Virus record (IMG/VR): IMGVR_UViG_3300045988_174840
Origin: a virus
Length of the DNA: 59,807 nucleotides
Strand: one strand, 5' to 3'
The first letter of the stretch is position 1, and each line of letters opens with the position of its first letter. Made by a program: the position numbers and the translations under genes. The notes beneath the pieces were generated by a model. The model saw only the letters and a list, made by a program, of their open reading frames with translations. It was not told the origin of the DNA and ran no database searches. Of this stretch, positions 874-59,807 are shown one piece after another.

Positions 874-1170
874 ATTTATTTTTTATTGTGCAAAGTGATG
901 AAAATTTTACATAAAAATCATAGTATTTTTGTTAAAATGTACAAATGTAGAAAAATAATGCGGATTTAGGCAGATTTTTGTGCATTTTGCTATCTTAAAT
1001 ATCACATATTGTGTTTCTGCGTGTCAAAAAAGGTATGATTTTTTATTAAAATTTCGTCACTTTGCACAAGGTGTAGAAAATCTTAGCATTATTTTATTAA
1101 ATTTTGTACATTTTGTACACCATGTCAAAAAATGGGATTTTTTTAATTTATTTTTTGTGCAAATTGCCTA

Positions 1171-1200
1171 TTGACAAAAAGGTGCTAGATGTGGTATAAT
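1171..1200 (+). promoter_or_regulatory. consensus promoter P1 (TTGACA-17-TGG-TATAAT, extended -10)
   Basis: Exact TTGACA and TATAAT hexamers with a 17-nt spacer and TGn. The promoter reads into the GC hairpin CGGGGTGCCCCG at 1208..1219. Confidence 0.7.
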
Positions 1201-1245
1201 AAAATTTCGGGGTGCCCCGACCCCGAACGGAATTCGTCTACTTCC

Positions 1246-1274
1246 ATTATAGCATACTCGAGCCACCTTGTCAA
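1246..1274 (-). promoter_or_regulatory. consensus promoter P2 on the minus strand (TTGACA-17-TATAAT), left arm of an inverted repeat
   Basis: Reverse complement of 1246..1274 reads TTGACA, a 17-nt spacer, then TATAAT. It is convergent with P1 across the 1208..1219 hairpin. Confidence 0.65.
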
Positions 1275-1332
1275 GAGAAAAAATGCACAAATTTTAGGAT
1301 AAAAATTTTGAAAAATTTGTGCATTTTTTCTC

Positions 1333-1361
1333 TTGACAAAATGTCTCAACTATGCTATAAT
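1333..1361 (+). promoter_or_regulatory. consensus promoter P3 (TTGACA-17-TATAAT), right arm of the inverted repeat
   Basis: Exact hexamers with a 17-nt spacer. The predicted transcript starts in the GC-rich hairpin 1366..1398, which contains the perfect palindrome GCTCGCGAGC. Confidence 0.7.
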
Positions 1362-1445
1362 GGAAGGCTCGGCTCGCATGGGCTGCTCGCGAGCCGGCTA
1401 TTATAACACATTTTCCGCGACTTGTCAACCCCTTTTAAAAAATTT

Positions 1446-1522
1446 TTTTATTTTCGTCATTTTGCATAAAAATAAAATTCAGCATTTTGCACAAATTTTA
1501 TTTTCGTCATTTTGCATAAAAA
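1446..1522. repeat. two copies of a 27-bp direct repeat TTTTATTTTCGTCATTTTGCATAAAAA, 50 bp apart
   Basis: Identical copies at 1446..1472 and 1496..1522. A related copy (TTTCGTCACTTTGCACAA) sits at ~1052..1073. Confidence 0.8.
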
Positions 1523-1549
1523 AACAAAAGCCTAAATTATATAGGCTTT
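1515..1549 (-). terminator. Rho-independent terminator for minus-strand gene 1568..1774; may also stop plus-strand transcripts from P1 and P3
   Basis: Hairpin AAAGCCTA-AATTATA-TAGGCTTT, followed on the minus strand by TGTTTTTTTATG. Confidence 0.65.
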
Positions 1550-1567
1550 ATCATTACTCTTATTAAG

Positions 1568-1774
1568 TTATTTAGTATTACATTTACATTTTGCTTCTGT
1601 AATAATTTCTGTCTGATTAATTTCTGTATTGCTATTGTTATTAAAAAAATGGTCTGAGCCTTTTGCTAAAAAAACTATTATAGTTGCTAGAATCATTCCG
1701 ATTATAAGAAAACCAATTAGACCATTCAAATCTCTTCTAAATTCTTCATCTGTTGGGGCTTTTTCTTCTCTCAT
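1568..1774 (-). CDS. small membrane protein (68 aa, one transmembrane helix)
   Basis: Track ORF with the hydrophobic segment LIGFLIIGMILATIIVFLA. Confidence 0.45.
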   Translation of the reverse strand: MREEKAPTDEEFRRDLNGLIGFLIIGMILATIIVFLAKGSDHFFNNNSNTEINQTEIITEAKCKCNTK

Positions 1775-1820
1775 TTATTTTTTCCTTTTTTTAGAGTTGT
1801 GAGTTGTGAATTTCATGGAC

Positions 1821-2000
1821 TTAATTATTATTAAGTCCATGAAACTTTTTATTTTCTCGTTTCATTATTGTTTCATAAGCAATCTCTACTATTTCTTTTG
1901 AAATATTTTGATTTTCTGCTATTTTACAGAACATAATCACTGTATCATTTTCAAACCCTTTTACTTTAATTACATTATCCATCATCTCTGTTCTTGTCAT
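1821..2000 (-). CDS. small early protein (59 aa, MTRTEMMDNVIKVKGFENDTVIMFCKIAE...)
   Basis: The first 7 codons of track ORF 1821..2021 lie inside the conserved promoter leader. The true ATG at 2000 follows an AAGAGAGG ribosome-binding site. Confidence 0.5.
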   Translation of the reverse strand: MTRTEMMDNVIKVKGFENDTVIMFCKIAENQNISKEIVEIAYETIMKRENKKFHGLNNN

Positions 2001-7980: not shown

Positions 7981-9138
7981 ATGACACCAATAATAATAGA
8001 AGATGAAGCTTTTGAGGAGAATATTTTAGAAGAAGAAAAAACAACAGAAAAACAAATCAAAGAAGAAAATATACAAACTACTATTAAATTAGATTATTCT
8101 TTAGAGACTCCTGAAGAGCGGAATGAATTAGTTAAAAAAATTATAAATAATACTCCTTCTGAGCAATTAACACCTAGATATTTAGAAATATTGTCAGATT
8201 ACATTATTTTTGCTATGGATAAACAAGAGCGGAAACAAAAGCAAATATTAACTGATAATCACATGGTCACAGTTAACAAAAGAGAAACTTCTTTTGAAGG
8301 ATTAGTTGGTCGCTTAGAGAATGGCGAAGATGGCATTTATAATATGATTGCTAATGATAAGAATATTATCTTTACACCTAAATTTCAAATAACTCAACAA
8401 GATATTGCGGAAATCCCCGAGTTAAAGCAACTTGTAGACGCGATTGCGGAAGTTGAAAAAGCTGAGAAAAAAGCAGTTGGTAAAAAGAAATTTTTATTAA
8501 AAAAGCAACTTATTGCTATGAGACAAGATCAATATGTAATTAGAAGTGCATATAAGCCGCCAATTTATTGTATGAACGCAATTAAAAGTTTTAGCAAAAT
8601 TGATTTTGATGAAAATGTTTCTATTAGCGGAGATGATGAAATTGAAGATAATAGCTTAGTTTCTTTTTTTAATCCTAAGCACGTATCTGCGTTATTATGT
8701 AACTATTCCCGCCTAAAAGAAGATGCATGGGGAAAATTCTATAGTGATTCATACTTTTTAATGGAAGATTTAGATACATTAATAGAAAAGACTTTAAGAG
8801 ACAGCTATCCAATGTATTATGACCTCTTGATTTATAAAATAGATGGAAAACAAAATCTTGAAATTCAAAGCCTATTGAATCAAAAGCATAATGTAAAACA
8901 TTCAGTGGAATATATATCATCTTTGTGGCGGAATAAGATACCTAAGCTATTGTCAGAGCAAGCTCAGGAAGACTACTTAATTTGGTATTATACGACTCAG
9001 AAGAAGGGAAAATGGAAAAAATGTTCCCGCTGTGGGGAAATCAAATTAGCTCATAATAAATTTTTTTCAAAGAATAAGACAAGCAAAGATCATTTTTACA
9101 GTATATGTAAATGTTGTCGAAATAAGAAAAATAAGTAA
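7981..9138 (+). CDS. hypothetical protein with a C-terminal Cys4 zinc ribbon (385 aa)
   Basis: CSRCGEIK...CKCCRNKKNK at the C-terminus. First gene of the late operon. Confidence 0.55.
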   Translation: MTPIIIEDEAFEENILEEEKTTEKQIKEENIQTTIKLDYSLETPEERNELVKKIINNTPSEQLTPRYLEILSDYIIFAMDKQERKQKQILTDNHMVTVNKRETSFEGLVGRLENGEDGIYNMIANDKNIIFTPKFQITQQDIAEIPELKQLVDAIAEVEKAEKKAVGKKKFLLKKQLIAMRQDQYVIRSAYKPPIYCMNAIKSFSKIDFDENVSISGDDEIEDNSLVSFFNPKHVSALLCNYSRLKEDAWGKFYSDSYFLMEDLDTLIEKTLRDSYPMYYDLLIYKIDGKQNLEIQSLLNQKHNVKHSVEYISSLWRNKIPKLLSEQAQEDYLIWYYTTQKKGKWKKCSRCGEIKLAHNKFFSKNKTSKDHFYSICKCCRNKKNK

Positions 9139-9150
9139 AGGAGGCTAATA

Positions 9151-10350
9151 ATGAATTATACTTGCAACAAATGCGGAAAATCAATGGATGAAATAAATTT
9201 TTATACATATAAAAATGGTAAAAAAACAGAATTATGTAAAAAATGTTTAACTATGCATATAAATAATTTTGAACCTAATACTTTCCTATGGGCATTAGAA
9301 AAGATGGATGTTCCATATGTTCCAGAAGAATGGAATATTTTAAGGGATAAAGCCTATGCAAAAGATCCTTATAAAATGAATGGGATGTCAGTATTTGGAA
9401 AATATCTTTCTAAAATGCGGCTAAAACAGTGGAAAAATTATAGTTGGGCAGATACAGAAAAGATTGCTCAAGAAAAAGAAAAAAAGACTCAAGAGGATCT
9501 CGAACAACAGAAAAAATTTGAAGAGAGTATGAAGCAACAGCTTGAAAAAGGGGAAATTTCTGAAGCTGAATACAAAACAATGGTTTCTACCCCTACTCAG
9601 AACGCGGAATTGGCGGTAAAAGCTCCTAAGAATGAGATTGGAACTGACAATTTTTATGATGAAAATAATTTTATAAGCGAGGATGAATTAATTGATCCCG
9701 CCGCGGAATTAACTCAAGAAGATAAGATTTACTTAGCTATGAAATGGGGACGTTTATACAAACCAAATGAGTGGGTTGAATTAGAGAAAAAATATGAAGA
9801 GATGACTAGTTCTTTTGATATTCAAGATTCAGATACTACAGGAACTTTAATTCTTATTTGTAAAACCTATTTAAAGATGAATCAGGCGATCGATTGCGGT
9901 GACATGGATGGATACCAGAAATTATCTAGAGTATACGATTCATTGCGTAAATCCGCAAAATTTACAGCCGCACAAAATAAAGAAGTAAAAAGTGATTTTG
10001 TAGACTGTATTGGAGAGATGGTTGCCTATTGTGAAAAAAATGGCGGTCAGATTCCAAGAATGAAGATAGAGGCTCCAAATGATATAGTAGATAAGGTTAT
10101 CATGGATTTAAAAGAGTATACGAGATCATTGATTTATGATGATAAATCCCTTGCTCAACAGATAGAAAATTATATTAAGCAGAGAGAAAATGCGGATGCG
10201 ATGAAGAAAGATAGAGAAGAAGCTAAAGAAAAAGGCTATAATCAAATAGAATTAAAAGATAGAGATTATCAAACTTATTTTGACAATATTGCAAAAGAAA
10301 AAGAAAATGATGAAAAAATTTATATAGGAGAGGATGAAGACTTTATATGA
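9151..10350 (+). CDS. hypothetical protein with an N-terminal zinc ribbon and a charged coiled-coil; terminase small subunit cannot be excluded
   Basis: CNKCGKS...CKKC in the first 35 aa. It lies immediately upstream of, and overlaps, the large terminase gene. Confidence 0.45.
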   Translation: MNYTCNKCGKSMDEINFYTYKNGKKTELCKKCLTMHINNFEPNTFLWALEKMDVPYVPEEWNILRDKAYAKDPYKMNGMSVFGKYLSKMRLKQWKNYSWADTEKIAQEKEKKTQEDLEQQKKFEESMKQQLEKGEISEAEYKTMVSTPTQNAELAVKAPKNEIGTDNFYDENNFISEDELIDPAAELTQEDKIYLAMKWGRLYKPNEWVELEKKYEEMTSSFDIQDSDTTGTLILICKTYLKMNQAIDCGDMDGYQKLSRVYDSLRKSAKFTAAQNKEVKSDFVDCIGEMVAYCEKNGGQIPRMKIEAPNDIVDKVIMDLKEYTRSLIYDDKSLAQQIENYIKQRENADAMKKDREEAKEKGYNQIELKDRDYQTYFDNIAKEKENDEKIYIGEDEDFI

Positions 10351-12089
10351 GTTTAAAAGGTTTATTAGATTTATCTGAATCTAGAACCCTTAAGAAGCAG
10401 GGCATGTCAGAAGAAAGACTGAAAGCTCAACTTCCTCATTTAAGAAAACTAATCGCTTATTATAGAGAATATCCAGATCTTTTAGTAGACTTTATGAAAG
10501 GTCCTGAGAGTACTTTTAAATTCTTTTTTTACCAGAGAATATTCTTAAGAATTACAATGCGGCATAGATATGTGTATGCCACTTTTCCACGTGCGTATAG
10601 TAAATCATTCTTATCTATGATGATTCTTATGTTAAGATGTATTCTCTATCCTAACTCACATTTATTTGTTACTACTGGCGGTAAAGAACAAGCTGCTAGT
10701 ATTACCATAGCAAAGATTGAAGAAATATGTAAGCTCATTCCCGCACTTAATAATGAATTAGATTGGTCAAGAGGAGCTTCTAAGAAATCAAAAGACGATG
10801 TTAATTATATCTTTAAAAATGATTCTTCTATTAATATATTAGCTGCGAAACAATCTTCTAGAGGCCAGCGTAGGACAGGTGGTTTAATGGAAGAATGTGT
10901 TCTTATAGACGGAGATATATTAAATGAAATAATAATTCCTACGACAAATGTTGATAGATTATTACCAGATGGAACTAGACATAAAGAAGAAATAATTAAT
11001 AAAAGTCAAATATATATTACAACAGCTGGGTGGAAGAATTCATTTGCATATGATAAACTGATGGAGCTTTTGGTTCAGTCAATGATTGAACCTGATAAAG
11101 TTATGATTATGGGTGGAACTTATGAAACACCTGTTGCAGAAGGTCTTTTGGATGAAGACTTTGTAGAGCAACTCAAATTACAAGGTACATTTAAAGAAGA
11201 TTCTTTTGATAGGGAATATCGTTCTAAATGGAGCGGAGATGCAGAAAATGCATTTTATTCTTCTGAAAAGTTTGATAGGTATAGAGTGTTATCCCAACCA
11301 GAATACGAATATAGCGGAAGAAGTAGTAAATCAGCTTATTATGTTATAGGGGTGGACGTCGGACGTATAGGCTGTACAACTGAAGCTTGTATATTCAAAG
11401 TTACCCCTCAACCGCAAGGAGCAGCTTTAAAGAGTTTGGTTAATATCTATACTTATGAAGCAGAGCATTTTGAAACTCAGGCAATCAATTTAAAGAAATT
11501 ATATTATAAGTACAAAGCTAAAATTATTTCGATTGATGCAAATGGCTTGGGTATTGGACTCATCGACTTCATGACAAGGGCACAGATTGACCCTGAAACA
11601 GGGGATACCCTTCCGCCGTTTGGAGTTGAAGGAGGAACATCAGAGGATGCTATTGCTCCTTATAGAAAAATTAAGGGCGGAGATGTGGAAGATAATGCTT
11701 TATATTTAATTAAAGCAAATGCACCAATTAATACTGAAGCTTATTCATATACTCAGACTCAAATGTCTAGCGGAAAAATTAAATTTTTGAAAGATGAGTC
11801 TGAAGCTAAAGCTAAGCTAATGTCATCAAAAGTTGGTCAGAATATGGATGCAGATAAAAGAAATGAATATTTAAAACCTTTTGTTTTAACAACGATTTTA
11901 AGAGAACAAATGCTAAATCTAGTTGAAGAAAATGAAGGAGTTAATATTATTTTAAAACAATCTTCAAGAGGTATAAAAAAGGATAAGTTTTCTGCTTTTA
12001 TATATGGACTGTACTATATAAAACAGGAAGAAGACCATAAGAAAAAGAGACGAAGTAGAAATATATCAGATTTTATGTTCTTTAGCTAA
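10347..12089 (+). CDS. terminase large subunit
   Basis: Deviant Walker A ATFPRAYSKSF near the N-terminus. RNase-H-like nuclease motifs VIGVDVGRIG and IISIDANGLGIGLIDF in the C-terminal half. Positioned before the portal gene. Confidence 0.7.
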   Translation: MSLKGLLDLSESRTLKKQGMSEERLKAQLPHLRKLIAYYREYPDLLVDFMKGPESTFKFFFYQRIFLRITMRHRYVYATFPRAYSKSFLSMMILMLRCILYPNSHLFVTTGGKEQAASITIAKIEEICKLIPALNNELDWSRGASKKSKDDVNYIFKNDSSINILAAKQSSRGQRRTGGLMEECVLIDGDILNEIIIPTTNVDRLLPDGTRHKEEIINKSQIYITTAGWKNSFAYDKLMELLVQSMIEPDKVMIMGGTYETPVAEGLLDEDFVEQLKLQGTFKEDSFDREYRSKWSGDAENAFYSSEKFDRYRVLSQPEYEYSGRSSKSAYYVIGVDVGRIGCTTEACIFKVTPQPQGAALKSLVNIYTYEAEHFETQAINLKKLYYKYKAKIISIDANGLGIGLIDFMTRAQIDPETGDTLPPFGVEGGTSEDAIAPYRKIKGGDVEDNALYLIKANAPINTEAYSYTQTQMSSGKIKFLKDESEAKAKLMSSKVGQNMDADKRNEYLKPFVLTTILREQMLNLVEENEGVNIILKQSSRGIKKDKFSAFIYGLYYIKQEEDHKKKRRSRNISDFMFFS

Positions 12090-12162
12090 AACAAAATGGA
12101 CAAATGTTTATAAAAAAGAGGAAGTATTTTTAAAGTATTATGAAAAAGAAGGGAGAAATGCT

Positions 12163-12519
12163 ATGCGAGCAAGTAGAGGTGAAATAAAAATTGAAGAAAT
12201 TCTTCAAGAATCAGGTTTGAATTTTAAAGAAGAGTATATTTTTTCTGACCTTGTAAGTTCTAGCGGTCGACCCCTCAGATTTGATTTTGCGATTTTAGAT
12301 GATAATAATGAATTAGATTTTTTAATAGAGTTCCAGGGTATTCAACATTATGAACCAAAGAGCAAATTTGGTGGAATCTCTGGATTGCGGAAGCAACAAT
12401 ATAATGATATGAAGAAGAGAGAATATTGTGCTAAGCACAATATTCCTCTTGTAATCATTCCTTATTGGGATGAAGGTAGACTTGATTATGATTATATTAT
12501 GACTGCCGCAGGATATTAA
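12163..12519 (+). CDS. DUF559/Vsr-like PD-(D/E)xK endonuclease, candidate free-standing homing-type nuclease
   Basis: RFDFAILDD...LDFLIEFQGIQHY matches the PDFA...IEVDGxQH pattern of Vsr/DUF559 nucleases. It is inserted between terminase and portal. Confidence 0.45.
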   Translation: MRASRGEIKIEEILQESGLNFKEEYIFSDLVSSSGRPLRFDFAILDDNNELDFLIEFQGIQHYEPKSKFGGISGLRKQQYNDMKKREYCAKHNIPLVIIPYWDEGRLDYDYIMTAAGY

Positions 12520-12635
12520 AATTTTTATTTTAATAAATTAGATAAAATTGTATTTTATGTTATACTATACTTAGAAAGGTTAAGGTGTATATCTTGATAA
12601 ATAGAGTAGCAGAAATAAAGAAGAAGGGGTTCCAA

Positions 12636-14177
12636 ATGAGTATTAATGACTCCACAGAAGATATATATGCTCAATCTTTTAATGCAGTAGACTTTTCTAA
12701 AATCAAGGTCGGGATAAAAACTTTAGATGACGCTATTGTAAACTTAGGAGAACTAAAAAAAATCAATCCTAGGTTAGCTGATAAAAAAGAAGTTTTACGA
12801 GCTATTAATAATGGAGACTATGAAACAATGAGAGATATATCTAATTTCTTTTATAAAACTAGTGGTATTTATAATAGACTTTGTAGATATATGGCATATT
12901 TATATAGATATGATTGGTTAATTACTCCTTATATTAATTCAGATAATTTAAAGCCAGAAAAAGTATTAGATGGATTTAATAAAGCTTTAATGTATTTAGA
13001 TAACTTTGAGGCTAAACGTTTTTTTGGGGAAGTTGCATTAAAAGTTATTAAGAATGGCTGTTATTATGGATATTTGATCCCCCAAAAAGATCGAATGGTA
13101 ATACAAGAATTGCCGCCTAAATATTGCCGTTCAAGATTTAGTGTTAATGGACGTCCTGCGGTAGAGTTTAATATGAGATTTTTTGATGAAGCATTTAGAG
13201 ATACAACTCAAAAGATGAAAATGCTAAATCTGTTTCCCGCGGAATTTAAGAAAGCTTATATTCTTTACAAAGAAGGAAAATTAAAAGCTGATTTTGCTGG
13301 AGATACATCTGGGTGGTATCTATTAAACATTGATAACGTAATAAAATTTAACTTGAATGGAGATGACTTTCCGGCTTTTATTTCAGTCATTCCCGCAATT
13401 ATAGATCTAGATGCTGCACAAGAGCTAGATAGAAAGAAAATGCAACAAAAACTATTAAAAATTATCATTCAGAAAATGCCTGTTGATAAAAATGGAGATT
13501 TGATTTTTGATGTAGAAGAAGCTCAACAGTTACATAATAACGCTGTGAAAATGTTAGGAAAAGCGATTGGGATAGATGTTTTAACTACTTTTGCTGATGT
13601 TGAAGTTGCGGATATGGCTGATAAGAGTTCCACCACTACTGTTGATGAATTGGAAAAGGTTGAGCGTGCAGTTTATAATGAAGCTGGAGTTTCTCAGATG
13701 CAATTTAACACAGATGGAAATATTGCCTTAGAAAAATCTATTTTGAATGACGAAGCTTCCATGTATAATTTATTAATTCAATTTGAAGGGTTTTTAAATA
13801 CATTATTAAAACCTTTTAATAAGAATCCAAAAAAAGTATACTATAAAGCACAGATTTTAACTACAACAATTTATAATTATAAAGAGATGGCTAAATTGTA
13901 TAAAGAACAGACTCAATTAGGTTATTCTAAGATGTTACCGCAAATAGCTCTAGGTCAATCTCAAAGTTCAATTTTAGCTAATGCTTATTTTGAAAATGAC
14001 GTTTTAGATTTAGTAAATCTATTTATTCCGCCTTTAATGTCTAGCACTATGAACGTGGAAGCATTAAGCCAAGCAAAAACTGCGGAAGATGGAGAAGAAA
14101 AGAAAGCGGGCAGAAAAGAAAAAGCTGATGATGAGAAAAGTGAAAAAACTATGAAAAATATAGAATCTCAAGGTTGA
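12636..14177 (+). CDS. portal protein (candidate)
   Basis: ~510 aa, directly downstream of terminase, with an acidic C-terminus. Track ORF starts at GTG 12585; the ATG at 12636 has a better AAGAAGGGG ribosome-binding site. Confidence 0.55.
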   Translation: MSINDSTEDIYAQSFNAVDFSKIKVGIKTLDDAIVNLGELKKINPRLADKKEVLRAINNGDYETMRDISNFFYKTSGIYNRLCRYMAYLYRYDWLITPYINSDNLKPEKVLDGFNKALMYLDNFEAKRFFGEVALKVIKNGCYYGYLIPQKDRMVIQELPPKYCRSRFSVNGRPAVEFNMRFFDEAFRDTTQKMKMLNLFPAEFKKAYILYKEGKLKADFAGDTSGWYLLNIDNVIKFNLNGDDFPAFISVIPAIIDLDAAQELDRKKMQQKLLKIIIQKMPVDKNGDLIFDVEEAQQLHNNAVKMLGKAIGIDVLTTFADVEVADMADKSSTTTVDELEKVERAVYNEAGVSQMQFNTDGNIALEKSILNDEASMYNLLIQFEGFLNTLLKPFNKNPKKVYYKAQILTTTIYNYKEMAKLYKEQTQLGYSKMLPQIALGQSQSSILANAYFENDVLDLVNLFIPPLMSSTMNVEALSQAKTAEDGEEKKAGRKEKADDEKSEKTMKNIESQG

Positions 14178-14196
14178 TTAAATTGGAGGTAGCTAA

Positions 14197-15606
14197 ATGT
14201 CAAGAATGAGTATAGCTACGATAGATAGTCCAGAATTTATAAACGTTTCTCCATATAATCCTTTAATTTCAGAATGTGAAATTAAAGTTTTGTATTTGGG
14301 AGAAAATAGAAATCATAGCTATATAAGTAAAGAAGTAGCTACAGAGATGGCTAATTCGTTACCTGGATGTCCTATTGTAGGTTATTTTAAACAAGATGTA
14401 AAAGATTTTGGCGATCATGGGGATCAAGTAGTAATTGATGAAAATGGAATACATTTTAATTGTCTTACAAAACCTTATGGATTTGTAGCTCCTAATGCTA
14501 AAATTTGGTTTCAAAAATTTGAGGATACAGACGATTTTGGAAATTCTATTATTAGAGAATATTTAATGACTACTGGGTTTTTGTGGACAGGGCAGTTTGA
14601 AGAGGCTCAAGCTGTTGTTGAGCAGGGAAAACCACATTCTATGGAATTAGATGAAGATTCCTTAGAAGGAGAATGGTCAAAAAATTATAAAACAGGTATA
14701 GAGTTTTTTATTATAAATGACGCAATATTTTCAAAATTATGTATTTTAGGAGATAATGTTGAACCTTGTTTTGAAGGTTCAAGTGTAACAGCTCCATGTA
14801 TAAGTACATCGTTTACTAAAGTAGATGATAATTTTAAAAAGACTTTATATACTATGATGCATGAATTAAAAGATGCATTAGAAGGAGGACAAATGGCTTT
14901 AGAAAAAGATAATAAAAAAGTTTCTGATGAAAAGGACAAAAAAGAACAAAACTTTTCCGCAGAAAATCAAAATTCTACAGAGGGATTAAATCAAACTGAT
15001 TTTGTAGCTTCTGATAAAGATAAAGATAAAAAAGAAGAAGAAGTTAAAGAAGATCAGCCTAAAAATGATGAAACCACAAAGACAGAAAAAGATGATGAAG
15101 ATAAAAAGAAAAACTTTGTAAAAAAAGAAGAAGATGAGACTGTTAAAGAAGAGTCTACTTCAAATGAAGATAAAAAAGATGATAATAAAGCACCTTCTGA
15201 TAAAGAGGAAGAAAAAGAGAAGAAAGATAAATACGCTTTATTAGAAACTCAATATCAAGATTTACAAAGTAAATACTCTGCATTAAAAGAGGATTTTCAA
15301 TCATTAGTAGCTTTTAAAAATCAAATTGAAAACGAGAAAAAAGATGCTTTAATCAATAGCTTTTATATGCTTTCAGATGAAGATAAGAAAGATGTAATTG
15401 CAAATAAAGCTAAATACTCTTTAGATGATATTGAAGCAAAGTTATCTGTAATTTGTGTTAGAAAGAAAGTTAATTTTGATTTAGAGGATACCTCAAAAAA
15501 TGAAAAAGATAATCCTGTTGCAACTTTTAATTTAGAAGAACAGGATAGCTCTATCCCAGCGTGGATAAATGCTTTAAAAAATACTCGAAACAGTAGAAAT
15601 GATTAA
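14197..15606 (+). CDS. scaffold-like protein with a long K/D/E-rich coiled-coil tail, possibly a protease-scaffold fusion
   Basis: An N-terminal ~220-aa globular part is followed by a low-complexity KDKDKKEEE...KKDDNK region. Lies between portal and capsid. Confidence 0.45.
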   Translation: MSRMSIATIDSPEFINVSPYNPLISECEIKVLYLGENRNHSYISKEVATEMANSLPGCPIVGYFKQDVKDFGDHGDQVVIDENGIHFNCLTKPYGFVAPNAKIWFQKFEDTDDFGNSIIREYLMTTGFLWTGQFEEAQAVVEQGKPHSMELDEDSLEGEWSKNYKTGIEFFIINDAIFSKLCILGDNVEPCFEGSSVTAPCISTSFTKVDDNFKKTLYTMMHELKDALEGGQMALEKDNKKVSDEKDKKEQNFSAENQNSTEGLNQTDFVASDKDKDKKEEEVKEDQPKNDETTKTEKDDEDKKKNFVKKEEDETVKEESTSNEDKKDDNKAPSDKEEEKEKKDKYALLETQYQDLQSKYSALKEDFQSLVAFKNQIENEKKDALINSFYMLSDEDKKDVIANKAKYSLDDIEAKLSVICVRKKVNFDLEDTSKNEKDNPVATFNLEEQDSSIPAWINALKNTRNSRND

Positions 15607-52676: not shown

Positions 52677-53138
52677 TTAAAAGTCAATTCCTTTTTTTAA
52701 TATTCGTTGATTACGACTACCCCTCCAAGACAGCCCATATTCATATTCGTCCTGTTTAAATTGTCCATCTATTAGGATATCTACATATTCTAATATTGGC
52801 AAATTTTTAATATCTTCTAAGACAAAACCAGTCCAAAGCCATATTGTTTTATCTGGAAAATTTTTCTTAAAGTCAGCACATAATTTAGTAACAGTACTTA
52901 AATTATATTGACTTAAAGGCTCTCCGCCCAAAATTGATATTCCACTGATATGATCGTTAATAGAATTAAAAATTTCTTGTTCTTTTGTTTCAGTATACTC
53001 TTCTCCATAATTAGGATTCTGTAATTTATAATTAAAACATCCTTTACAATGAAAATCGCAGCCTGAAAAAAAGATAGCGGTTCTTAATCCTTCTCCATTT
53101 GATATGCAATATTTTTTAATCTTTGCTATATTAGCCAT
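52677..53138 (-). CDS. nrdG: anaerobic ribonucleotide reductase activating protein (radical SAM)
   Basis: CDFHCKGC (CxxxCxxC) near the N-terminus. Located directly downstream of nrdD. The likely start MANIAKIKKYC overlaps the nrdD stop (TAATATG). Confidence 0.75.
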   Translation of the reverse strand: MANIAKIKKYCISNGEGLRTAIFFSGCDFHCKGCFNYKLQNPNYGEEYTETKEQEIFNSINDHISGISILGGEPLSQYNLSTVTKLCADFKKNFPDKTIWLWTGFVLEDIKNLPILEYVDILIDGQFKQDEYEYGLSWRGSRNQRILKKGIDF

Positions 53139-53139
53139 A

Positions 53140-55263
53140 TTATTCTTCCTCTTCTGGATCAATGTGATAAACTCTTGCGGCTATATCTGCTGCTCTACCT
53201 TCGCTAAAAGGATTAGTACTTATATACCCACATATACGAACTGCAACATTCATTTTATCAAAGTCATCATTTCCGCAACAAGGACAAACGAATTTTAATT
53301 TATTTTTATCCATTTTAATATCTGTACTTCCGCAAACTTGACAGTAAGATGTAGTAGTATTAATTTCTGCATACATATTAGTTTCATAAATATGTTTAAT
53401 AATTTCCAATAGTGCAGGAATATTATTTTCCATATTTGGTGTTTCACAATATGTAATTTGACCTCCTTCGCTATATTTAGCGAAATCACTTTCAATAGTT
53501 AATTTCTCAAAAGCATCTATTGAAAATGCAGGATTTATATGATAAGAATTAGTAATATATAATTTATCATTAACACCTTTTATGATAGGATATTCTTTCA
53601 ACGCTTTTGCAAATTTAGTTGTAGTATTTTCAATAGGAGTCCCATATAAAGAAAAACCTATATTTGTTTTATTTTTCCATTCTTTACATTTTTCATTAAG
53701 GTGCTTCATAATAGACAGAGCCATTTCTTTTCCTTCTGAAGTAGTTAAGCTTTTATTTGTTAAAGCTAATACTGTTTCCCACAGTCCTGCATAGCCAAGA
53801 GAGATAGATGAATTTAATCCATATAATAAAGGATCAATTACTTCTCCAGGTTTTAATCTTGCACAAGCACCATGTTGCCATAATATCGGGGCTACATCAG
53901 ACTTTGTTCCTAGTAATCTATTATGCCTAATCATTAATGCTCTATAGCATAATTCTAGTCTTTCGTCTAGCACACTCCAGAAATCTTCCTTACTATTGAT
54001 AGCTTCTAATGCAGCTGCCGCCAGATTTATAGTGACTACGCCCTGATTAAATTTCCCCCAATATCTATGTTCGATTGGATCTCCTGCGAGAAAAGATCTA
54101 CATCCCATACATCCGTAGACGTCGCCTTTTAACTCTTTCATCTTCTTTGCAGAGATATAATCTGGAACTAATCTTTTTGCACTACACTCCGCGGCTAATT
54201 CTGTTAAATACCAATATTCGCTATCTTCTGTAATGTTATTTTTATCTAAAACATAAAGTAACTTTGGAAAAGCTACAGTTACGTAAACACCCTGTTCATT
54301 CTTAATTCCTTTAATTCTTTGTTTTAAAATTTCTTCTATTATTAGAGCTAAGTCTTTTTCCTCTTGTTTATTTTTAGCATCTTTTAAATAAAGAAATAAA
54401 CTTGCAAATGGAGACTGACCATTCGTACTAGACATTGTAATTAATTGATACTGAATTGTCTGAACGCCATCTGAGATTTCATCTCTTATTAACCTTTCAA
54501 TTTCAGGATCACTCAAAAAAGGAAATTTTCTTAAATACCTTTCTCTTGATTTTTGAACAAGAGGGGCTAAGTGAGCTATATTGATAGTTTGTCCTCCATA
54601 CTGAGAGCTTGCAACTTGAGCAGCAATTTGAGTTGCAACAGTACAACCTGTTCTAAAACTATTTGGAGGGTCTATCTTAGAGCCGCTTATAACAGTACCA
54701 TTCTGTAACATATCTTCAAGATTAACTAAACAACAATTAGTCATTGGCATAGCAGGACTATAATCCATATCGTGAAAATGAATCCATCCTTTGTTGTGAG
54801 CATCTAATATGTCTTTATCAATATGAAATTCCGCTAATTCCTTACAGGTAAATCCAGCAATATAATCTCTCATAGTTGGAATAATTCTAGTATCTTTATT
54901 AGAGTTTTCGGTTTTAGATTCTTTATCTGTCCCATCAATTAGATTAAGAATTTTTTCATTCTTAAATTTTAATGTTCCTTTCATTTCTCTAAGATGAGTT
55001 CTTTCATCTCTATACACAATAAAAGCTTTTGCAACATCTTTTCTCTTAGTAGACATTAGTCCTTTTTCAACTAAATCTTGAATTTCTTCTACTGTTAAGT
55101 CTTTTGTTTTTGCTATATCTGAAATATAATCTGCAATATTACCAGCTTTAATTAAAGCATAATCAGATATATCATTATCAATTTGCTTAAAAGCAGCAAG
55201 AACCGCGTCTACAATTTTCATCTTATCAAATTTTACTGTTCTATTATCTCTTTTAATTACCAT
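53140..55263 (-). CDS. nrdD: anaerobic ribonucleoside-triphosphate reductase (class III)
   Basis: N-terminal ATP-cone (VIKRDNRTVKFDKMKI). C-terminal Cys4 cluster CQVCG...CPCCG and glycyl-radical motif RICGY. Confidence 0.85.
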   Translation of the reverse strand: MVIKRDNRTVKFDKMKIVDAVLAAFKQIDNDISDYALIKAGNIADYISDIAKTKDLTVEEIQDLVEKGLMSTKRKDVAKAFIVYRDERTHLREMKGTLKFKNEKILNLIDGTDKESKTENSNKDTRIIPTMRDYIAGFTCKELAEFHIDKDILDAHNKGWIHFHDMDYSPAMPMTNCCLVNLEDMLQNGTVISGSKIDPPNSFRTGCTVATQIAAQVASSQYGGQTINIAHLAPLVQKSRERYLRKFPFLSDPEIERLIRDEISDGVQTIQYQLITMSSTNGQSPFASLFLYLKDAKNKQEEKDLALIIEEILKQRIKGIKNEQGVYVTVAFPKLLYVLDKNNITEDSEYWYLTELAAECSAKRLVPDYISAKKMKELKGDVYGCMGCRSFLAGDPIEHRYWGKFNQGVVTINLAAAALEAINSKEDFWSVLDERLELCYRALMIRHNRLLGTKSDVAPILWQHGACARLKPGEVIDPLLYGLNSSISLGYAGLWETVLALTNKSLTTSEGKEMALSIMKHLNEKCKEWKNKTNIGFSLYGTPIENTTTKFAKALKEYPIIKGVNDKLYITNSYHINPAFSIDAFEKLTIESDFAKYSEGGQITYCETPNMENNIPALLEIIKHIYETNMYAEINTTTSYCQVCGSTDIKMDKNKLKFVCPCCGNDDFDKMNVAVRICGYISTNPFSEGRAADIAARVYHIDPEEEE

Positions 55264-55343
55264 AATTAATATTATCCTCCTAATTATATTATTATTTTAA
55301 GGCTTATAATATATATTAAATTTTACTTATTGATTATTATTAG

Positions 55344-55904
55344 TTATTGTCCATGTATAAAATCTGCAATAGGTTCAAAAGAGTCAAACATACTAGGAGC
55401 ATAATCAGATTCATTATAAAAAGTTATATATTCAAAATTAATGTCTGAAAAATCTCTTTCGTCAGCAAGAAATCTTCGACAAATTTCTCTGCAATCTGGG
55501 TTATGTTCTCTTCTTAAAGCTCTTTTTAATCTTTCTTTTCCTGGTGCTTCTATTAAAACTGGTAGTACCTCTATTCTTTCATCTTTCAATAATTGCCTAA
55601 TCCCTGAGATACTAAAAACACCAATATTTATTTTATCTTTATCTAACTCTTGGATAGAAGTGCCATATAGCCATTTTTTAAAATAAACCGCATCTATTAT
55701 ATCTTTATTGCGAACCCGTCTTTCAAAATCATCACGATATAGAAAATAATAATCTATGCCATCTCTTTCGTATGCTCTTGGTGATCTAGTAGTACAACTA
55801 ATAATTTCTTTTATTTCTGAATGATTGTAACACATTCGTTTTTTTATAGTATCTTTTCCTGCACCGCTCTTTCCGAACAGTGCAAGAACTTTATATTTTG
55901 ACAT
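55344..55904 (-). CDS. gmk: guanylate kinase-like nucleoside monophosphate kinase
   Basis: P-loop LALFGKSGAGKDT followed by CTTRSPRAYERDGIDYYF, which parallels the Gmk motif TTRxPRxGExDGxDYxF. The start MSKYK uses a ribosome-binding site inside the end of dnaE. Confidence 0.6.
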   Translation of the reverse strand: MSKYKVLALFGKSGAGKDTIKKRMCYNHSEIKEIISCTTRSPRAYERDGIDYYFLYRDDFERRVRNKDIIDAVYFKKWLYGTSIQELDKDKINIGVFSISGIRQLLKDERIEVLPVLIEAPGKERLKRALRREHNPDCREICRRFLADERDFSDINFEYITFYNESDYAPSMFDSFEPIADFIHGQ

Positions 55905-55905
55905 T

Positions 55906-57322
55906 TTATTCTCCTTCCATACCATATCTAACATGCTCTAGTTTCATATCTGAACCATTGACGTCAATAATCTTGTAGAGCTGATGGGTAGGGGTATGTT
56001 TATACGATTTAGTCTGAAATGTATCTCCACGCCTAAACCCAGTACACATTACTTTTGTTCCTCTTTGAAACCAGCCTTTTTCCATAACTTTTTTAGTTCC
56101 ATCTTCTTGCTTTTCAGAAATTTGTCTCCCAAACATAGCAAAGTAATCTTTTGTAAATTTTACATTAACAACTCCAGAAGTTGTTAATAATGATATTGAA
56201 GAACGAGCATCATTTTTACTGATTACAGTGCCAATGATTTTATAAGTCTTATAAATAGGGATTTCTTTTCCATTTCTTTTGAAAAAATAATCTACAACAG
56301 GCTCTTCGGGTAATTTAGAAAAATCTGAAATTCCATACTTTAAAGTATCAATATTTATTAATTCATGTGGATGATAATAAAAACATAAGCTTTCCATTTC
56401 CCACGCGGAAATATTTCCTTTAGCATATTTATTCCAAGAGTCAAGAAATAAAGCCTCATTAAATTCTTTTAATACTGTCTGTTGATTCTCTTTAAGCCAA
56501 TCTCTAGCTCTATCCATGCCTTTTTGATACTTTTTATCCCATTTGTTTTGTAAAATACAAACGCATCCGTTTATCACTTCAAGGTCTTCCATATCGTATC
56601 TTTGATTGTAGAATTTTTCACAAGCATCATCAAAGACATAATATTTTCCAACTTTTTTCTCAGTTTTTAGATACTTATTAAAGAAAAATAATCTTTTCAT
56701 ACTATCTAAAGAAGGTGGAATTAAGTCTTTTTGAATTAAACCATTAAAGTTTTGTAGCGTTAATTTCTTTTTTGGTTCACTAACAACAGACAGATAATAT
56801 ATCATTACAAGCACTCTTGGTTCAACATTTAATTCTTTTGCCCATTCTAATTCCAGTTTATCAAAAGCTCCGCTCTTTATTAAGGAAATCATTGCAGATT
56901 TATTTAAAGGACATCTTATCATAAAGTCTTTAATGCTTTTATATGGTCTACCAGAAAAAATCTGCTCAATAATTGGTGCACCTACATTACTCAATGCTTT
57001 CATTCCAAAAAGAATTTCGTTGTTTTCAACATCTGGCTTAAAGCTATAGTCAGATTTATTTATATCAACTAAAGAAATTTTTATTCCTCTTGATAAAATA
57101 TCTCCAATAGCCTTAGCTATTTTACTATAATCCGTAGATTTTTCTTTCTTTTTACTTTCTTCTGTTTCTTCTTCATTTTCAATATTATCTTCTTCTAAGG
57201 CTCCACTATTTACAATTAAACACGCGGTATTCCAATAGATAGGATTCCATCTTGTGGCTATGTATATAGTTTGAAATCCTATGAAAGAGTAAGCCAGGGC
57301 ATGTATGCATAATTTAAAATTA
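55906..57322 (-). CDS. dnaE: DNA polymerase III alpha subunit (DnaE-type), C-terminal exon or segment
   Basis: The open frame extends upstream of track ORF 55906..57003 to the stop at 57334. It encodes ...FNFKLCIHALAYSFIGFQTIYIATRWNPIYWNTACL (cf. DnaE GYGFNKSHSAAYALVSYQT..HYPAEFMAA). The HhH region ALSNVGAPIIEQI...SLIKSGAFD and a C-terminal OB-fold follow. Confidence 0.7.
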
Positions 57323-58539
57323 CTGACTATTTTTTACAGACGTTGTAGTGAGATTTTGGCTTTTCTCTTGTCTGCACACTATTTCCCAAAACGTATCAAT
57401 AGTTTCAGTACTCCCCGTCTAACCAGGGATAGTCGATACAACATTTTTCTTTTAATAGATTTATTTATTATCTCTAAGAGGGTATTTATATTTTTCTTTT
57501 TTATGAGAACGTCCTGCGTTAATATTTTTAATTGTTGCATAGCTTTTATTCCATTTTTTTGCGATATCTTTTAAAGATAAATCTGTTTCTAAAATATCTT
57601 TTATAATACCTTGAATCCAGATTTCATTTTTAGCTTTATTACCACCTTTATCACAAAGAGGGTAGTTATCCTTATCACTATAAAAATATTTTCCTGTATT
57701 TATCATAGATAAAAATCCAGCTGATTTAATTCCAAAATCTTCTTGAATTGTTTTATATTTTTCTCCGCTTTTAATTCTATCTTTTATTTCTCTAATTTCT
57801 TTTTGAGAAAAGCGGCTTTTAGAATTTTTCTTTAAAGGATAATCAAACTCTTCATTAAAATAATTTGTTCCAGTATTTATATTAACTAAAAACGTTCTTT
57901 TTAACTTAGGAAAATAAATTTTTTCAATATCATCATATTCTTCATCATTCATTAGACGATTTTGGATATCAATAATTTCTTCTTTTTTAAAGAGTTTAGA
58001 TCGGTTTAATTTTTCTTCATACGTTAAAGGTTTTCTTTTATATCCTTGTCCGCCTAAAGTAATATTATATCCATTTTCATCTTTTAAAGAATGATAATAT
58101 TGAATAAAATAAATTTCTCTTTCGTCAATATATTCTTGAGATTCTCCATCAGCAATCTCTTCAAGAATATCAAAATTAAAATTATCCCAACCATATTTTC
58201 TTATGGCTGCGTGAAATGGCAAATTATAGCCAGAAGTTTTTTCATTAAAAGACTCACTTTTATGTCCATTTTTTCTTTTTTGAACATTATTAGTTTGTCC
58301 GATATAAATTTTACCATTTGTTTTATTTGTAAATTTATAAATATAGTACATAATATTCTCCTTATACATTGTTTTACTATTCTCATGTATAACTGAAAAA
58401 TACTATACCTCTATTAAAGAAATTTGTCACGAGATTTAACCCTCGTTAGCAATTAAAACCATATTTGCCAAATATGTAAATGTTTTAATTACCCCACTGA
58501 TAAGTGGTTAAGTGTGTAAGCACCATTCACACAATGCTA
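57323..58539 (-). other. ~1.2-kb intervening sequence interrupting dnaE; candidate group I intron carrying a homing endonuclease gene
   Basis: The upstream frame ends in-frame with ...GYSF then SIV-stop. The downstream frame has no nearby ATG or ribosome-binding site. The proposed junction, with the 5' exon ending in T and the intron ending in G, restores GYSFNFKLCIHALAY. Confidence 0.5.
57461..58351 (-). CDS. GIY-YIG homing endonuclease, free-standing inside the dnaE intervening sequence
   Basis: N-terminal YYIYKFTNKTNGKIYIGQT...KRKNGH (GIY-YIG motif). Perfect AAGGAG ribosome-binding site 6 nt before the second ATG at 58351; track ORF starts 6 codons earlier. Confidence 0.8.
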   Translation of the reverse strand: MYYIYKFTNKTNGKIYIGQTNNVQKRKNGHKSESFNEKTSGYNLPFHAAIRKYGWDNFNFDILEEIADGESQEYIDEREIYFIQYYHSLKDENGYNITLGGQGYKRKPLTYEEKLNRSKLFKKEEIIDIQNRLMNDEEYDDIEKIYFPKLKRTFLVNINTGTNYFNEEFDYPLKKNSKSRFSQKEIREIKDRIKSGEKYKTIQEDFGIKSAGFLSMINTGKYFYSDKDNYPLCDKGGNKAKNEIWIQGIIKDILETDLSLKDIAKKWNKSYATIKNINAGRSHKKEKYKYPLRDNK

Positions 58540-59807
58540 AAGCTATATCCCATCTGCGGACCTATGCCATATTTCCATACATAGTCTCCGAGTTCTTTTC
58601 TTTTAGCTTGTTCAATAACCTTCTTTTTCAATTCTGGAATTTTACTCATTTGTTTTTTACCAACAATTTTTCTCGCGGTGTTGGCTTCAGATAACTTAAA
58701 ACCGCAAATATCCTTATCCATTAACATACTCATTAATTGTTCTTGACTTGGCGGAACACCATAAGACTTTAAGAAATAAGGTTCTAATGTTTTCATCTCT
58801 TGAGGAGATAACCCCTCTCTTCTCATTTCTTGATACCAAAGATCAATATTTTTTTTATATCTTACATATTTTTCCATTGGCGTTTCTTGACCTTTTTCAC
58901 TAGTCATAAGTCTCATTAATCCATTAGCATCTGACATTTCAATTATTGAGGCTGGCTTAATTTTTTTTGCAGCCTGACTGCCTACATCGCTATCAAATTG
59001 AAAAATATTTAAAACTGAGTTGTTTTGCAGTGCTTTCCAACATTTTTTATCTTCGATAGGTAAAACACTTGGATGAAAATATTTTTCATACACTTCTTTT
59101 AAAGATAAATCTGATTCAATTTCATTATTAGCCTGTAGTAATTTAATTGTTTCTGCTAATTTATCCTGGACTTCAGTTACTAAGAAGTCATATTTTGTCA
59201 TACCTGCTGCTTCGCACATATGAAGATCCCATTGCGTAATAATTTCTCCTTTAGGAGTCCGCATAAAACATCCAAATTCATATGGGTCTTCATCAAAAAG
59301 GATTACTCCAGAAGCATGAGAACTCCTTTTGTTTACTAACCCTTCAATAGCAATCATAATATCTAATAAGCCAGGATATTTTTCTACCTCATTAGTAAAC
59401 ATCTTAATAGGCTTTCTATCTTTATCTGGGTTACCATTAATGGCATCTGATAAAGACCATAAAAAACCTCTTTCACTTGGAATTAAAGAAGATAAAAATT
59501 GAGCAGTGTCAACATCAATTCCGTCTGGATACTCTTCACTTCTATATCCGCGACAAGCAGTTAAAATAGTTGATCGAGTACCTTCAGTTCCAAAAGTGGC
59601 TATCAACGTACATCCTAAATTTTTTCGAGATAAAACATCAATATCTTTTTTAAAATTTTTTCCGCGTTCTTCCTTTATTTTCTTTAAAATTAAAGGTCTT
59701 TTACTTGGACTTAAATCTAAATCTATATCTCCAAGCTCTATACGCTCTTTATTTAAATATCTCCAGAAAGGAAGCTCCCATTCAATCGGATCTAGTTGAG
59801 TAATTCC
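58540..59807 (-). CDS. dnaE: DNA polymerase III alpha subunit (DnaE-type), upstream exon or segment, 5' partial (continues beyond the window)
   Basis: Track ORF 58527..59606 (IATFGTEGTRSTILTACRGY...) stays open in the same frame to the window edge at 59807. It ends at the conserved GYGF position. Confidence 0.7.

Follow-up and report, generated by a model that had tools for sequence, protein, structure and literature searches.

A GIY-YIG endonuclease gene within a very probable mobile group I intron that interrupts dnaE of a phage

In the td gene of phage T4, a group I intron carries the open reading frame (ORF) of a GIY-YIG endonuclease, I-TevI, which forms a loop on helix P6a and has its own translation signals. 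The DNA-binding region of I-TevI comprises a zinc finger, a minor-groove helix, and a single helix-turn-helix, and its cleavage motif is CNNNG. Introns with homing endonucleases also interrupt the polymerase genes of phages SPO1 and Pf-WMP3, both polymerases belonging to family A; the SPO1 endonuclease I-HmuI is an HNH enzyme, as is its Pf-WMP3 counterpart. The intron of cyanophage Pf-WMP3 is described as belonging to subgroup IA2 and its endonuclease, I-PfoP3I, as a nicking HNH enzyme (PMC3428280). For nrdF of the Bacillus cereus group, a GIY-YIG endonuclease in a group IA intron is described (PMC2248736). Here we analyze a related arrangement in a viral DNA of 59,807 nt, IMG/VR record IMGVR_UViG_3300045988_174840 (the window), where a GIY-YIG endonuclease ORF lies inside an interruption of the DNA polymerase gene dnaE. 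We conclude with high confidence that the segment 58533..57308 is a mobile group I intron, IA2-like, in a phage dnaE gene, and that the ORF encodes its homing endonuclease.

The interruption divides the window into three parts at this locus:

58534..59807, minus strand: dnaE exon 1, partial (runs off the end of the window), ending GGA UAU AGC UUU AGC AU at the predicted 5′ splice site
57308..58533, minus strand: group I intron as assigned here, 1,226 nt, first base U 58533, last base G 57308 (omega-G)
55906..57307, minus strand: dnaE exon 2, beginning C AUA CAU GCC, with an HHH_6 domain (Pfam)

The frame of exon 1 reads through to GPQMGYSFSIV and meets a stop codon two codons past the junction, and the frame of exon 2, which reads HALAYSFIGFQTIY, contains its first start codon only at ATG 57003. 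The approximately 100 codons between the splice site and this ATG specify a protein sequence 100% conserved with that of a related viral contig, L004 (IMGVR_UViG_3300045988_162193; related contigs and loci are given L numbers), despite differences in the DNA. Joining AGCAU, ending at 58534, to C57307 yields GYSFSIIHALAYS. The resulting DnaE aligns gaplessly with uninterrupted homologs from Enterococcus phage VRE9_3 (GYSFSILHTIGY), SPbeta (YorL, GYSFSLLHTLAY), and a Mammaliicoccus phage, and the joined exons contain no extra residues relative to these proteins.

L004 is 98.6% identical to the window upstream of the site and 95.4% identical downstream. It runs unbroken across the site, where AGCATT is followed directly by ATACATGCT (intron-less sequence around the site, CCGCAGATGGGATATAGCTTTAGCATTATACATGCT), and the window is longer by 1,226 bases. 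The boundaries of the insertion and the restoration of the frame upon its removal are established. The best 80 relatives in the viral-contig collection are all uninterrupted at this site, and the motif GYSFS[IV]IHALAY is nearly invariant among them.

Exon 1 matches the Pfam families DNA_pol3_alpha and DNA_pol3_finger, and the junction falls between the finger domain and HHH_6, aligning with N814-K815-S816-H817 of Taq DnaE (motif YGFNKSH). The initial annotation had located the insertion at the catalytic-core motif of DnaE. The interrupted motif is indeed strongly conserved, but the catalytic Asp motif GDIDLD (aligned to PDIDTD of Taq) is found in exon 1, some 400 residues upstream of the junction and near the start of the fragment present in the window, which makes the term catalytic-core imprecise. 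Homing endonucleases usually prefer conserved targets (PMC3984707), and the conservation of the dnaE site fits this preference.

The non-coding flanks of the ORF, 164 nt before it and 153 nt after it, can be assigned to the paired (P) and joining (J) segments of a group I ribozyme, with two additional hairpins, hp1 and hp2. In the order of the transcript, these are:

58533..58538, minus strand: P1 5′ strand, AGCAU/U, with the splice site after U58534, which is paired with G; its partner is GGUGCU
58524..58526, minus strand: candidate 3-bp P10, AUG, pairable with CAU of exon 2 as read from the sequence; it consists of the first G of the guide and the two bases upstream of the guide
58519..58524, minus strand: internal guide GGUGCU (P1 3′ strand), which pairs with the end of the 5′ exon
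58511..58516, minus strand: P3 5′ strand, CACACU, 2 nt after P1, pairing with AGUGUG at 57380..57375; covaries in the wider intron family
58494..58507, minus strand: hp1, hairpin CCACU-UAUC-AGUGG between P3 and P4; the stem covaries and the loop UAUC occupies 58502..58499
58449..58492, minus strand: hp2, a long variable stem with compensatory changes, ending directly before the UAA junction and P4
58429..58448, minus strand: J3/4 (UAA) and P4 (ACGAG/CUCGU) with the 8-nt loop GGUUAAAU, without a P5 helix
58410..58428, minus strand: P6 (GAC) and P6a 5′ strand (UUUCUUUAAUAGA), pairing with 57459..57440 across the ORF
57440..57459, minus strand: P6a 3′ strand (UCUAUUAAAAGAAA, one bulged A) and P6 3′ strand (GUU), beginning 1 nt past the ORF stop
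57429..57434, minus strand: P7 5′ strand, GACUAU, pairing with AUAGUC at 57330..57325
57413..57428, minus strand: P7.1, hairpin CCCU-GGUUAGAC-GGGG, with compensatory changes in three of four pairs
57386..57408, minus strand: P7.2, hairpin CUGAAAC-UAUUGAUAC-GUUUUGG, with GAUA in the loop at 57397..57394 and compensatory changes in five of seven pairs
57375..57380, minus strand: P3 3′ strand, AGUGUG, adjoining P8
57337..57374, minus strand: P8 (CAGAC/GUCUG) with inner stem GAGA/UCUC; compensatory changes in three of five outer pairs and two of three contiguous inner pairs
57325..57330, minus strand: P7 3′ strand, AUAGUC, pairing with GACUAU; a motif of the shared core
57310..57322, minus strand: P9, hairpin UAAUU-UUA-AAUUA, followed by U and the terminal G 57308

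The elements expected of a group I intron are present, namely P1 with a U·G pair at the splice site, a terminal G, the P3/P7 pseudoknot, P4, P6, and P8. Furthermore, P7.1 and P7.2, the hallmark of subgroup IA between P7 and the 3′ strand of P3, are present and covarying. P6a is a 13-bp stem that brackets the endonuclease ORF; the P6/P6a sequences differ in L144, L225, and L227, yet the pairing is kept. The J3/4–P4 segment is nearly invariant across the five dnaE-site introns, with variation at one loop position (U/A), and resembles UAAACGGGG...AAUCCCGUG of L101, an Rfam-validated group I intron. At the 3′ end, where the window intron reads UUAUG/C, each of the five ends in G, and the P9 stem of L144 is UUAUU/AAUAA.

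Covariation was analyzed in an alignment of these five distinct introns, with the P6a loop that contains the ORF replaced by GAAA. Standard pairs occupy 95.7% of the pair cells, compared with approximately 40% when partners are slid by 1–3 columns. Changes on both sides are found in 28 of 82 pairs (13.6 ± 2.2 in shuffles), and none of the 500 shuffles reaches any of the five covariation measures. Compensatory changes are observed in P1, P3, hp1, hp2 (6 of the 11 outer pairs), P6a, P7.1, P7.2, and P8. They extend to the pairing of exon and guide, as L144 and L223 combine the exon sequence AGCGUU with the guide GGCGCU, replacing an A-U pair by G-C. The covariation of P3 comes mostly from the wider intron family, and P4 and P7 are invariant across the five introns and hence uninformative in this respect. 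The helices and their covariation are established, and an unconstrained thermodynamic fold of the construct lacking the ORF recovers hp1, hp2, P4, P6/P6a, P7.1, and P8 (z = −4.1).

The ribozyme core is connected to recognized group I introns by sequence. The core string GACUAUCCC(loop)GGGGAGUA is found in more than 120 viral contigs, and AUAGUC follows within 170 nt downstream in 104 of 122 matches. In L101 (6369..6595), which matches Rfam Intron_gpI with 85 bits, this string corresponds to the 5′ strand of P7 and the P7.1/P7.2 insertion. Rfam also recognizes as group I an intron of L154 that has hp1 but no ORF (36 bits, E 6e-8). The stretch 8638..14969 (minus strand) of L154, a 161-kb viral contig, belongs to a 15-kb region with five Rfam group I matches, two of them above the gathering score, an unusually high density. 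In L171, 3 kb of sequence hold multiple cores resembling those of introns, along with copies of the endonuclease.

The periphery of the ribozyme deviates from the usual group I layout. In group I introns, P2 and P2.1 precede P3. Here, the 5′ strand of P3 directly follows P1, and hp1 and hp2 are found between P3 and J3/4–P4. The hp1 sequence led to 13 distinct introns in which we examined this placement. In 12 of them, an uninterrupted helix of 6–7 bp joins the strand after P1 to the segment beside P8; the exception is a locus whose extraction joined two different introns. The partners change together, as in CUCACU/GGUGAG, GUUUCC/GGAAAC, UAUAGC/GCUAUA, and GGCAUU/GGUGCC. The canonical alternative, with the P3 strand directly 5′ of J3/4, was rejected, as it averages 3.4 bp compared with 6.2 bp for the strand after P1 (joined locus excluded). 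Rfam aligns L154 with P3 forced onto the second hairpin, at its 3′ strand. The arrangement with P3 after P1 and two hairpins is also seen in loci L110, L206, L211, L212, L215–L217, L219, and L222. An optional pairing termed P3.1 is listed for group I introns (PMC3873408), providing a precedent for an element after P3.

The loop of hp1 (UAUC) is complementary to GAUA in the loop of P7.2, and the two loops covary in independent introns, with UACC/GGUA in L119, L136, and L154, AGCC/GGCA in L177, and CGUC/GACA in L186. These substitutions suggest a kissing contact between hp1 and P7.2. A competing pairing of GUAUC in J6/7 with GAUAC in the P7.2 loop is invariant in the dnaE clade. We rejected it and chose the hp1 contact because the hp1 loop covaries with that of P7.2 and J6/7 does not, varying in the wider family (GUAAC, GUAGA) without compensation.

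None of the five dnaE-site introns has a P5: an 8-nt loop, GGUWAAAU, caps P4 in each of them. Elsewhere in the wider family, introns with a P5 of normal or great length occur. The ribozyme may represent an undescribed structural subclass, characterized by P3 after P1, two hairpins following P3, the hp1–P7.2 kissing contact, and loss of P5 in the dnaE clade, and belonging to a family that is common in gut and rumen phage contigs, resides in several host genes, and is under-detected and misaligned at P3 by Rfam; we regard this as a tentative proposal that could well prove wrong. If it splices, the approximately 276-nt ribozyme (the helices without the P6a loop of about 950 nt), P5-less and with a kissing clamp, would modestly widen the structural diversity of group I introns.

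The P6a loop contains the endonuclease gene and its translation signal:

57461..58351, minus strand: GIY-YIG homing endonuclease ORF, 296 aa plus stop codon, located in the P6a loop
58358..58363, minus strand: Shine-Dalgarno sequence AAGGAG of the endonuclease gene, 6 nt before ATG 58351

The ORF extends on the minus strand from the ATG at 58351..58349 to the TAA at 57463..57461. An alternative in-frame ATG at 58369 would give a product of 302 aa, six residues longer. The start at 58351 is preferred because the L144 homolog begins at the matching position (MPYIYKY); in addition, L144 has AAAGGAGG at the place equivalent to the Shine-Dalgarno sequence. The limits of the gene are thereby the same as in the initial annotation, which had also ranked its ribosome-binding site as the cleanest in the region. 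The minus strand of the window contains AAGGAG 18 times, which leaves no basis for such a ranking.

Two further observations concern the region upstream of the start codon. A promoter-like sequence, GTGACA-17-TATAGT (58402..58430, minus strand), is located within the intron, with its −35 element overlapping conserved P4/P6 sequence; in L223, the −10 element is TATAAT. In a promoter scan, promoter-like sites are no commoner here than in shuffled sequences. Moreover, a hairpin formed by UUAUACAU...AUGUAUAA (58351..58395, minus strand) abuts the ribosome-binding site and includes the unused ATG 58369. L223 has this hairpin, but L144 and L225 carry a deletion of it; it may play a part in controlling translation.

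The Pfam profile GIY-YIG (PF01541) matches residues 7–99 of the 302-aa reading with E 9.4e-11 and 42.3 bits, above the cut-off of 22.6, and PHROG 7168, 'homing endonuclease', matches the ORF with E 8.7e-41. The match to the SegE_GIY-YIG profile is weak and sub-threshold (19.7 bits, cut-off 25). A fragment 99% identical over 53% of the query carries the JGI label 'group I intron endonuclease', and public data contain more than 120 related clusters of about 293 aa. A blastn search with 57200..58700 against 50,697 phage records yielded only short hits, all in the region encoding the N-terminus of the nuclease, and none for the ribozyme.

Residues 4–98 align with the catalytic domain of I-TevI over its full length with 31% identity. 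Y5, Y16, R26, H30, E79, and N96 correspond to Y6, Y17, R27, H31, E75, and N90 of I-TevI and are invariant in 24 homologs. An AlphaFold model of the protein (mean pLDDT 89.8) contains the GIY-YIG domain, and a Foldseek search with it finds the I-TevI catalytic domain (1MK0/1LN0) with E 2e-4, a target-normalized TM-score of 0.85, and an rmsd of 2.2–2.3 Å; no other solved structure is matched significantly. The ORF and its family are established, and the GIY-YIG assignment made initially is upheld by profile, PHROG family, catalytic residues, and modeled fold alike.

Beyond the catalytic domain, the model shows a low-confidence linker at residues 102–105 and three modules of three helices each, predicted at residues 123–160, 183–219, and 237–279. 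The modules constitute an internal repeat (E 5e-8) with the common pattern IN[TA]G...YPL. Compared with solved structures, the C-terminal part weakly resembles sigma factors and small helix-turn-helix domains (Foldseek E > 0.1). The predicted layout is a catalytic domain (residues 1 to approximately 100), a flexible linker, and three helix-turn-helix-like modules that may bind DNA.

Several points weigh against reading the locus as a mobile group I intron with its homing endonuclease. Rfam RF00028 gives no match at E ≤ 1 over 55500..59807, where the search returns a chance miRNA match only, and no group I model reaches the gathering score over the whole window. The ORF loop of about 950 nt in P6a and the non-canonical position of P3 can explain this, but the negative result stands. 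P5 is usually counted as part of the group I core (PMC3873408), and its absence means that efficient self-splicing without a helper is not assured. The helix-turn-helix-like character of the C-terminal modules draws on the structural model and on sub-threshold profile matches: when the modules were searched separately against Pfam, such matches were obtained for the third module only, and HTH_38 scores 18 bits, below its cut-off of 27. Finally, splicing, cleavage, and the position of the cut are predictions that draw on group I chemistry and on the parallel with I-TevI and I-BmoI.

The distribution of the intron bears on its mobility. The same intron, 76% identical, is found in L144 at the identical dnaE codon, and further dnaE-site introns have endonucleases with identities of 87% (L223/L224), 75% (L225/L226), and 55% (L227) to that of the window. 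The distribution is patchy, and presence or absence at one exact site is the pattern that would be expected of an active homing element. A second insertion is seen upstream in dnaE of L225, within the finger domain, with a GIY-YIG gene of 251 aa (1108..1863); its counterpart in L226 (1105..1251) has only 48 aa and looks decayed.

Among alternative explanations, the one that survives best accepts the intron and holds that the endonuclease no longer drives mobility, being either a decaying remnant or retained for another role, such as that of a maturase-like helper or self-repressor. A ribozyme without P5 might need a protein helper, the 48-aa gene of L226 indicates that decay occurs in the system, and persistence at the same site across hosts, with endonuclease identity down to 55%, could reflect vertical retention. 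We consider this explanation unlikely, given the invariance of the six catalytic residues, the conservation of a length of about 293 aa in more than 100 clusters, and dN/dS values of 0.10–0.40 among the five endonuclease genes; the ORF is under purifying selection. In addition, the near-isogenic intron-less relative and the 80 intron-less relatives produce the patchy pattern that active homing would be expected to leave.

Less probable still is a free-standing GIY-YIG gene, similar to the seg and mob genes of T4, that splits dnaE into two independently translated products which then assemble. The initial annotation had described the gene as free-standing, and on related contigs gene callers report three separate genes, two dnaE pieces and the nuclease; the ribosome-binding site and the promoter-like site of the nuclease would also suit an independent gene. 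However, exon 2 opens with its approximately 100 codons of conserved protein without a start codon, in frame with exon 1 only after subtraction of 1,226 nt, and the split falls within a nearly invariant motif. The 28 compensatory pairs in the non-coding flanks, including those between exon 1 and the guide, are unexpected for intergenic spacers. With the ORF placed in the P6a loop of a group I intron, and the dnaE frame continuous once that intron is taken out, the free-standing description is not sustained.

A fractured dnaE, in which an endonuclease gene is accompanied by split-intein halves that act by protein trans-splicing (cf. PMC2677866), is hardly credible: although the order dnaE-N, nuclease, dnaE-C looks like that of fractured-gene loci, an arrangement known from metagenomes and described in a source that also treats dnaE at length, we rejected it as the flanks hold no ORFs, the frame stops two codons past the junction, covarying helices fill the 164-nt and 153-nt flanks and leave no room for an intein, and exon joining leaves no residues beyond those of uninterrupted homologs.

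For the mobile group I intron, the following course of events can be proposed. By analogy with group I chemistry, the intron RNA would fold, bind guanosine at P7, and cut after U58534, held in P1 by GGUGCU. Exon 1 would then be joined to C57307 after G57308, giving an mRNA that reads AGC AUC AUA CAU (Ser-Ile-Ile-His) at the junction (predicted sequence of the spliced mRNA, GCTTTAGCATCATACATGCCCTGG), so that the polymerase would be made intact. The endonuclease gene in the P6a loop would leave the core undisturbed and be translated from its own ribosome-binding site. In a mixed infection, as for I-TevI and I-BmoI, the C-terminal modules would bind an uninterrupted dnaE around the insertion site, the tethered catalytic domain would cut nearby, and repair from the intron-carrying genome would transfer the intron, together with flanking markers, to the allele that was cut. 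Alleles that already carry the intron would be immune because it splits the recognition site. The sequence CNNNG is present at positions −25..−21 of exon 1 in 37 of 60 distinct intron-less sites; we propose it as a candidate cleavage motif, as a prediction and not as evidence. The cut would then be expected in exon 1, some 20–27 bp upstream of the site and near CCGCAG.

A second nuclease-related gene is plausible at 12163..12519 (plus strand), an ORF of 118 aa just after the gene that the initial annotation called terminase. It had been labeled as DUF559-like; Pfam, including DUF559, gives no match at E ≤ 0.01, which leaves that label without support, but the ORF matches an internal domain of PHROG families of HNH, homing, and intron-encoded nucleases (E 2e-29), in line with the nuclease part of the claim. 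Downstream of dnaE, the minus strand carries a group of genes in 52677..55934, consisting of a guanylate-kinase-like gene (55344..55934), a 707-aa ORF in the nrdD position (53140..55263), and a 161-aa ORF (52677..53162) taken from its sequence as the nrdD activating enzyme. The labels Guanylate_kin and NRDD derive from Pfam matches on homologous loci and not on the ORFs of the window. In L223, L225, and L227, too, the intron is followed by the guanylate-kinase and nrdD genes in this order.

For annotation, the replicative polymerase of this phage is to be read as one spliced gene and not as two fragments and a stray nuclease, and the public gene calls on related contigs split dnaE wrongly. The window and L004 form a near-isogenic pair with and without the intron and offer material for measuring homing and marker exclusion at dnaE; polymorphisms on the two sides of the site lie at +9, +51, and +123 and at −148 and −183. 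The predicted combination of an I-TevI-type catalytic domain with a different, modular region of three helix-turn-helix-like units may be of some interest for GIY-YIG engineering.

We found no phage dnaE gene described as carrying a group I intron in the literature searched, itself incomplete, but the locus has clear parallels. Like the SPO1 (I-HmuI) and Pf-WMP3 (I-PfoP3I) elements, it combines a group I intron and a homing endonuclease in a conserved region of a replicative polymerase; it differs from them in that the polymerase is of family C (DnaE) and the enzyme of the GIY-YIG type. With nrdF of the B. cereus group, an essential DNA-precursor gene, it has in common a group IA intron that encodes a GIY-YIG endonuclease in low-GC Gram-positive hosts or their phages; the host gene is another one, and the likeness is one of description. 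The Seg endonucleases of T4 belong to the same nuclease superfamily and act in marker exclusion or gene conversion between related phages, which is predicted here as well. In contrast, the seg genes lie between genes, whereas the ORF of the window is inside an intron supported by covariation.

The closest likeness is to T4 td and I-TevI. Both introns are of the IA type with P7.1 and P7.2, both interrupt a phage gene of nucleotide or DNA metabolism, and in both the endonuclease ORF resides in the P6a loop with its own translation signals. The predicted layout of the window protein, with catalytic domain, linker, and putative DNA-binding domain, resembles that of I-TevI, and all catalytic residues are kept. 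The differences lie in the host gene, which is dnaE and not td, in the modest identity of the catalytic domains (31%), in the three tandem helix-turn-helix-like modules of the modeled window protein, and in the ribozyme, which is without P5 and has two hairpins between P3 and P4. In this company, the endonuclease intron is an ordinary though well-preserved mobile intron; intron and endonuclease belong to a well-known kind of element, and the periphery of the ribozyme is somewhat more unusual.

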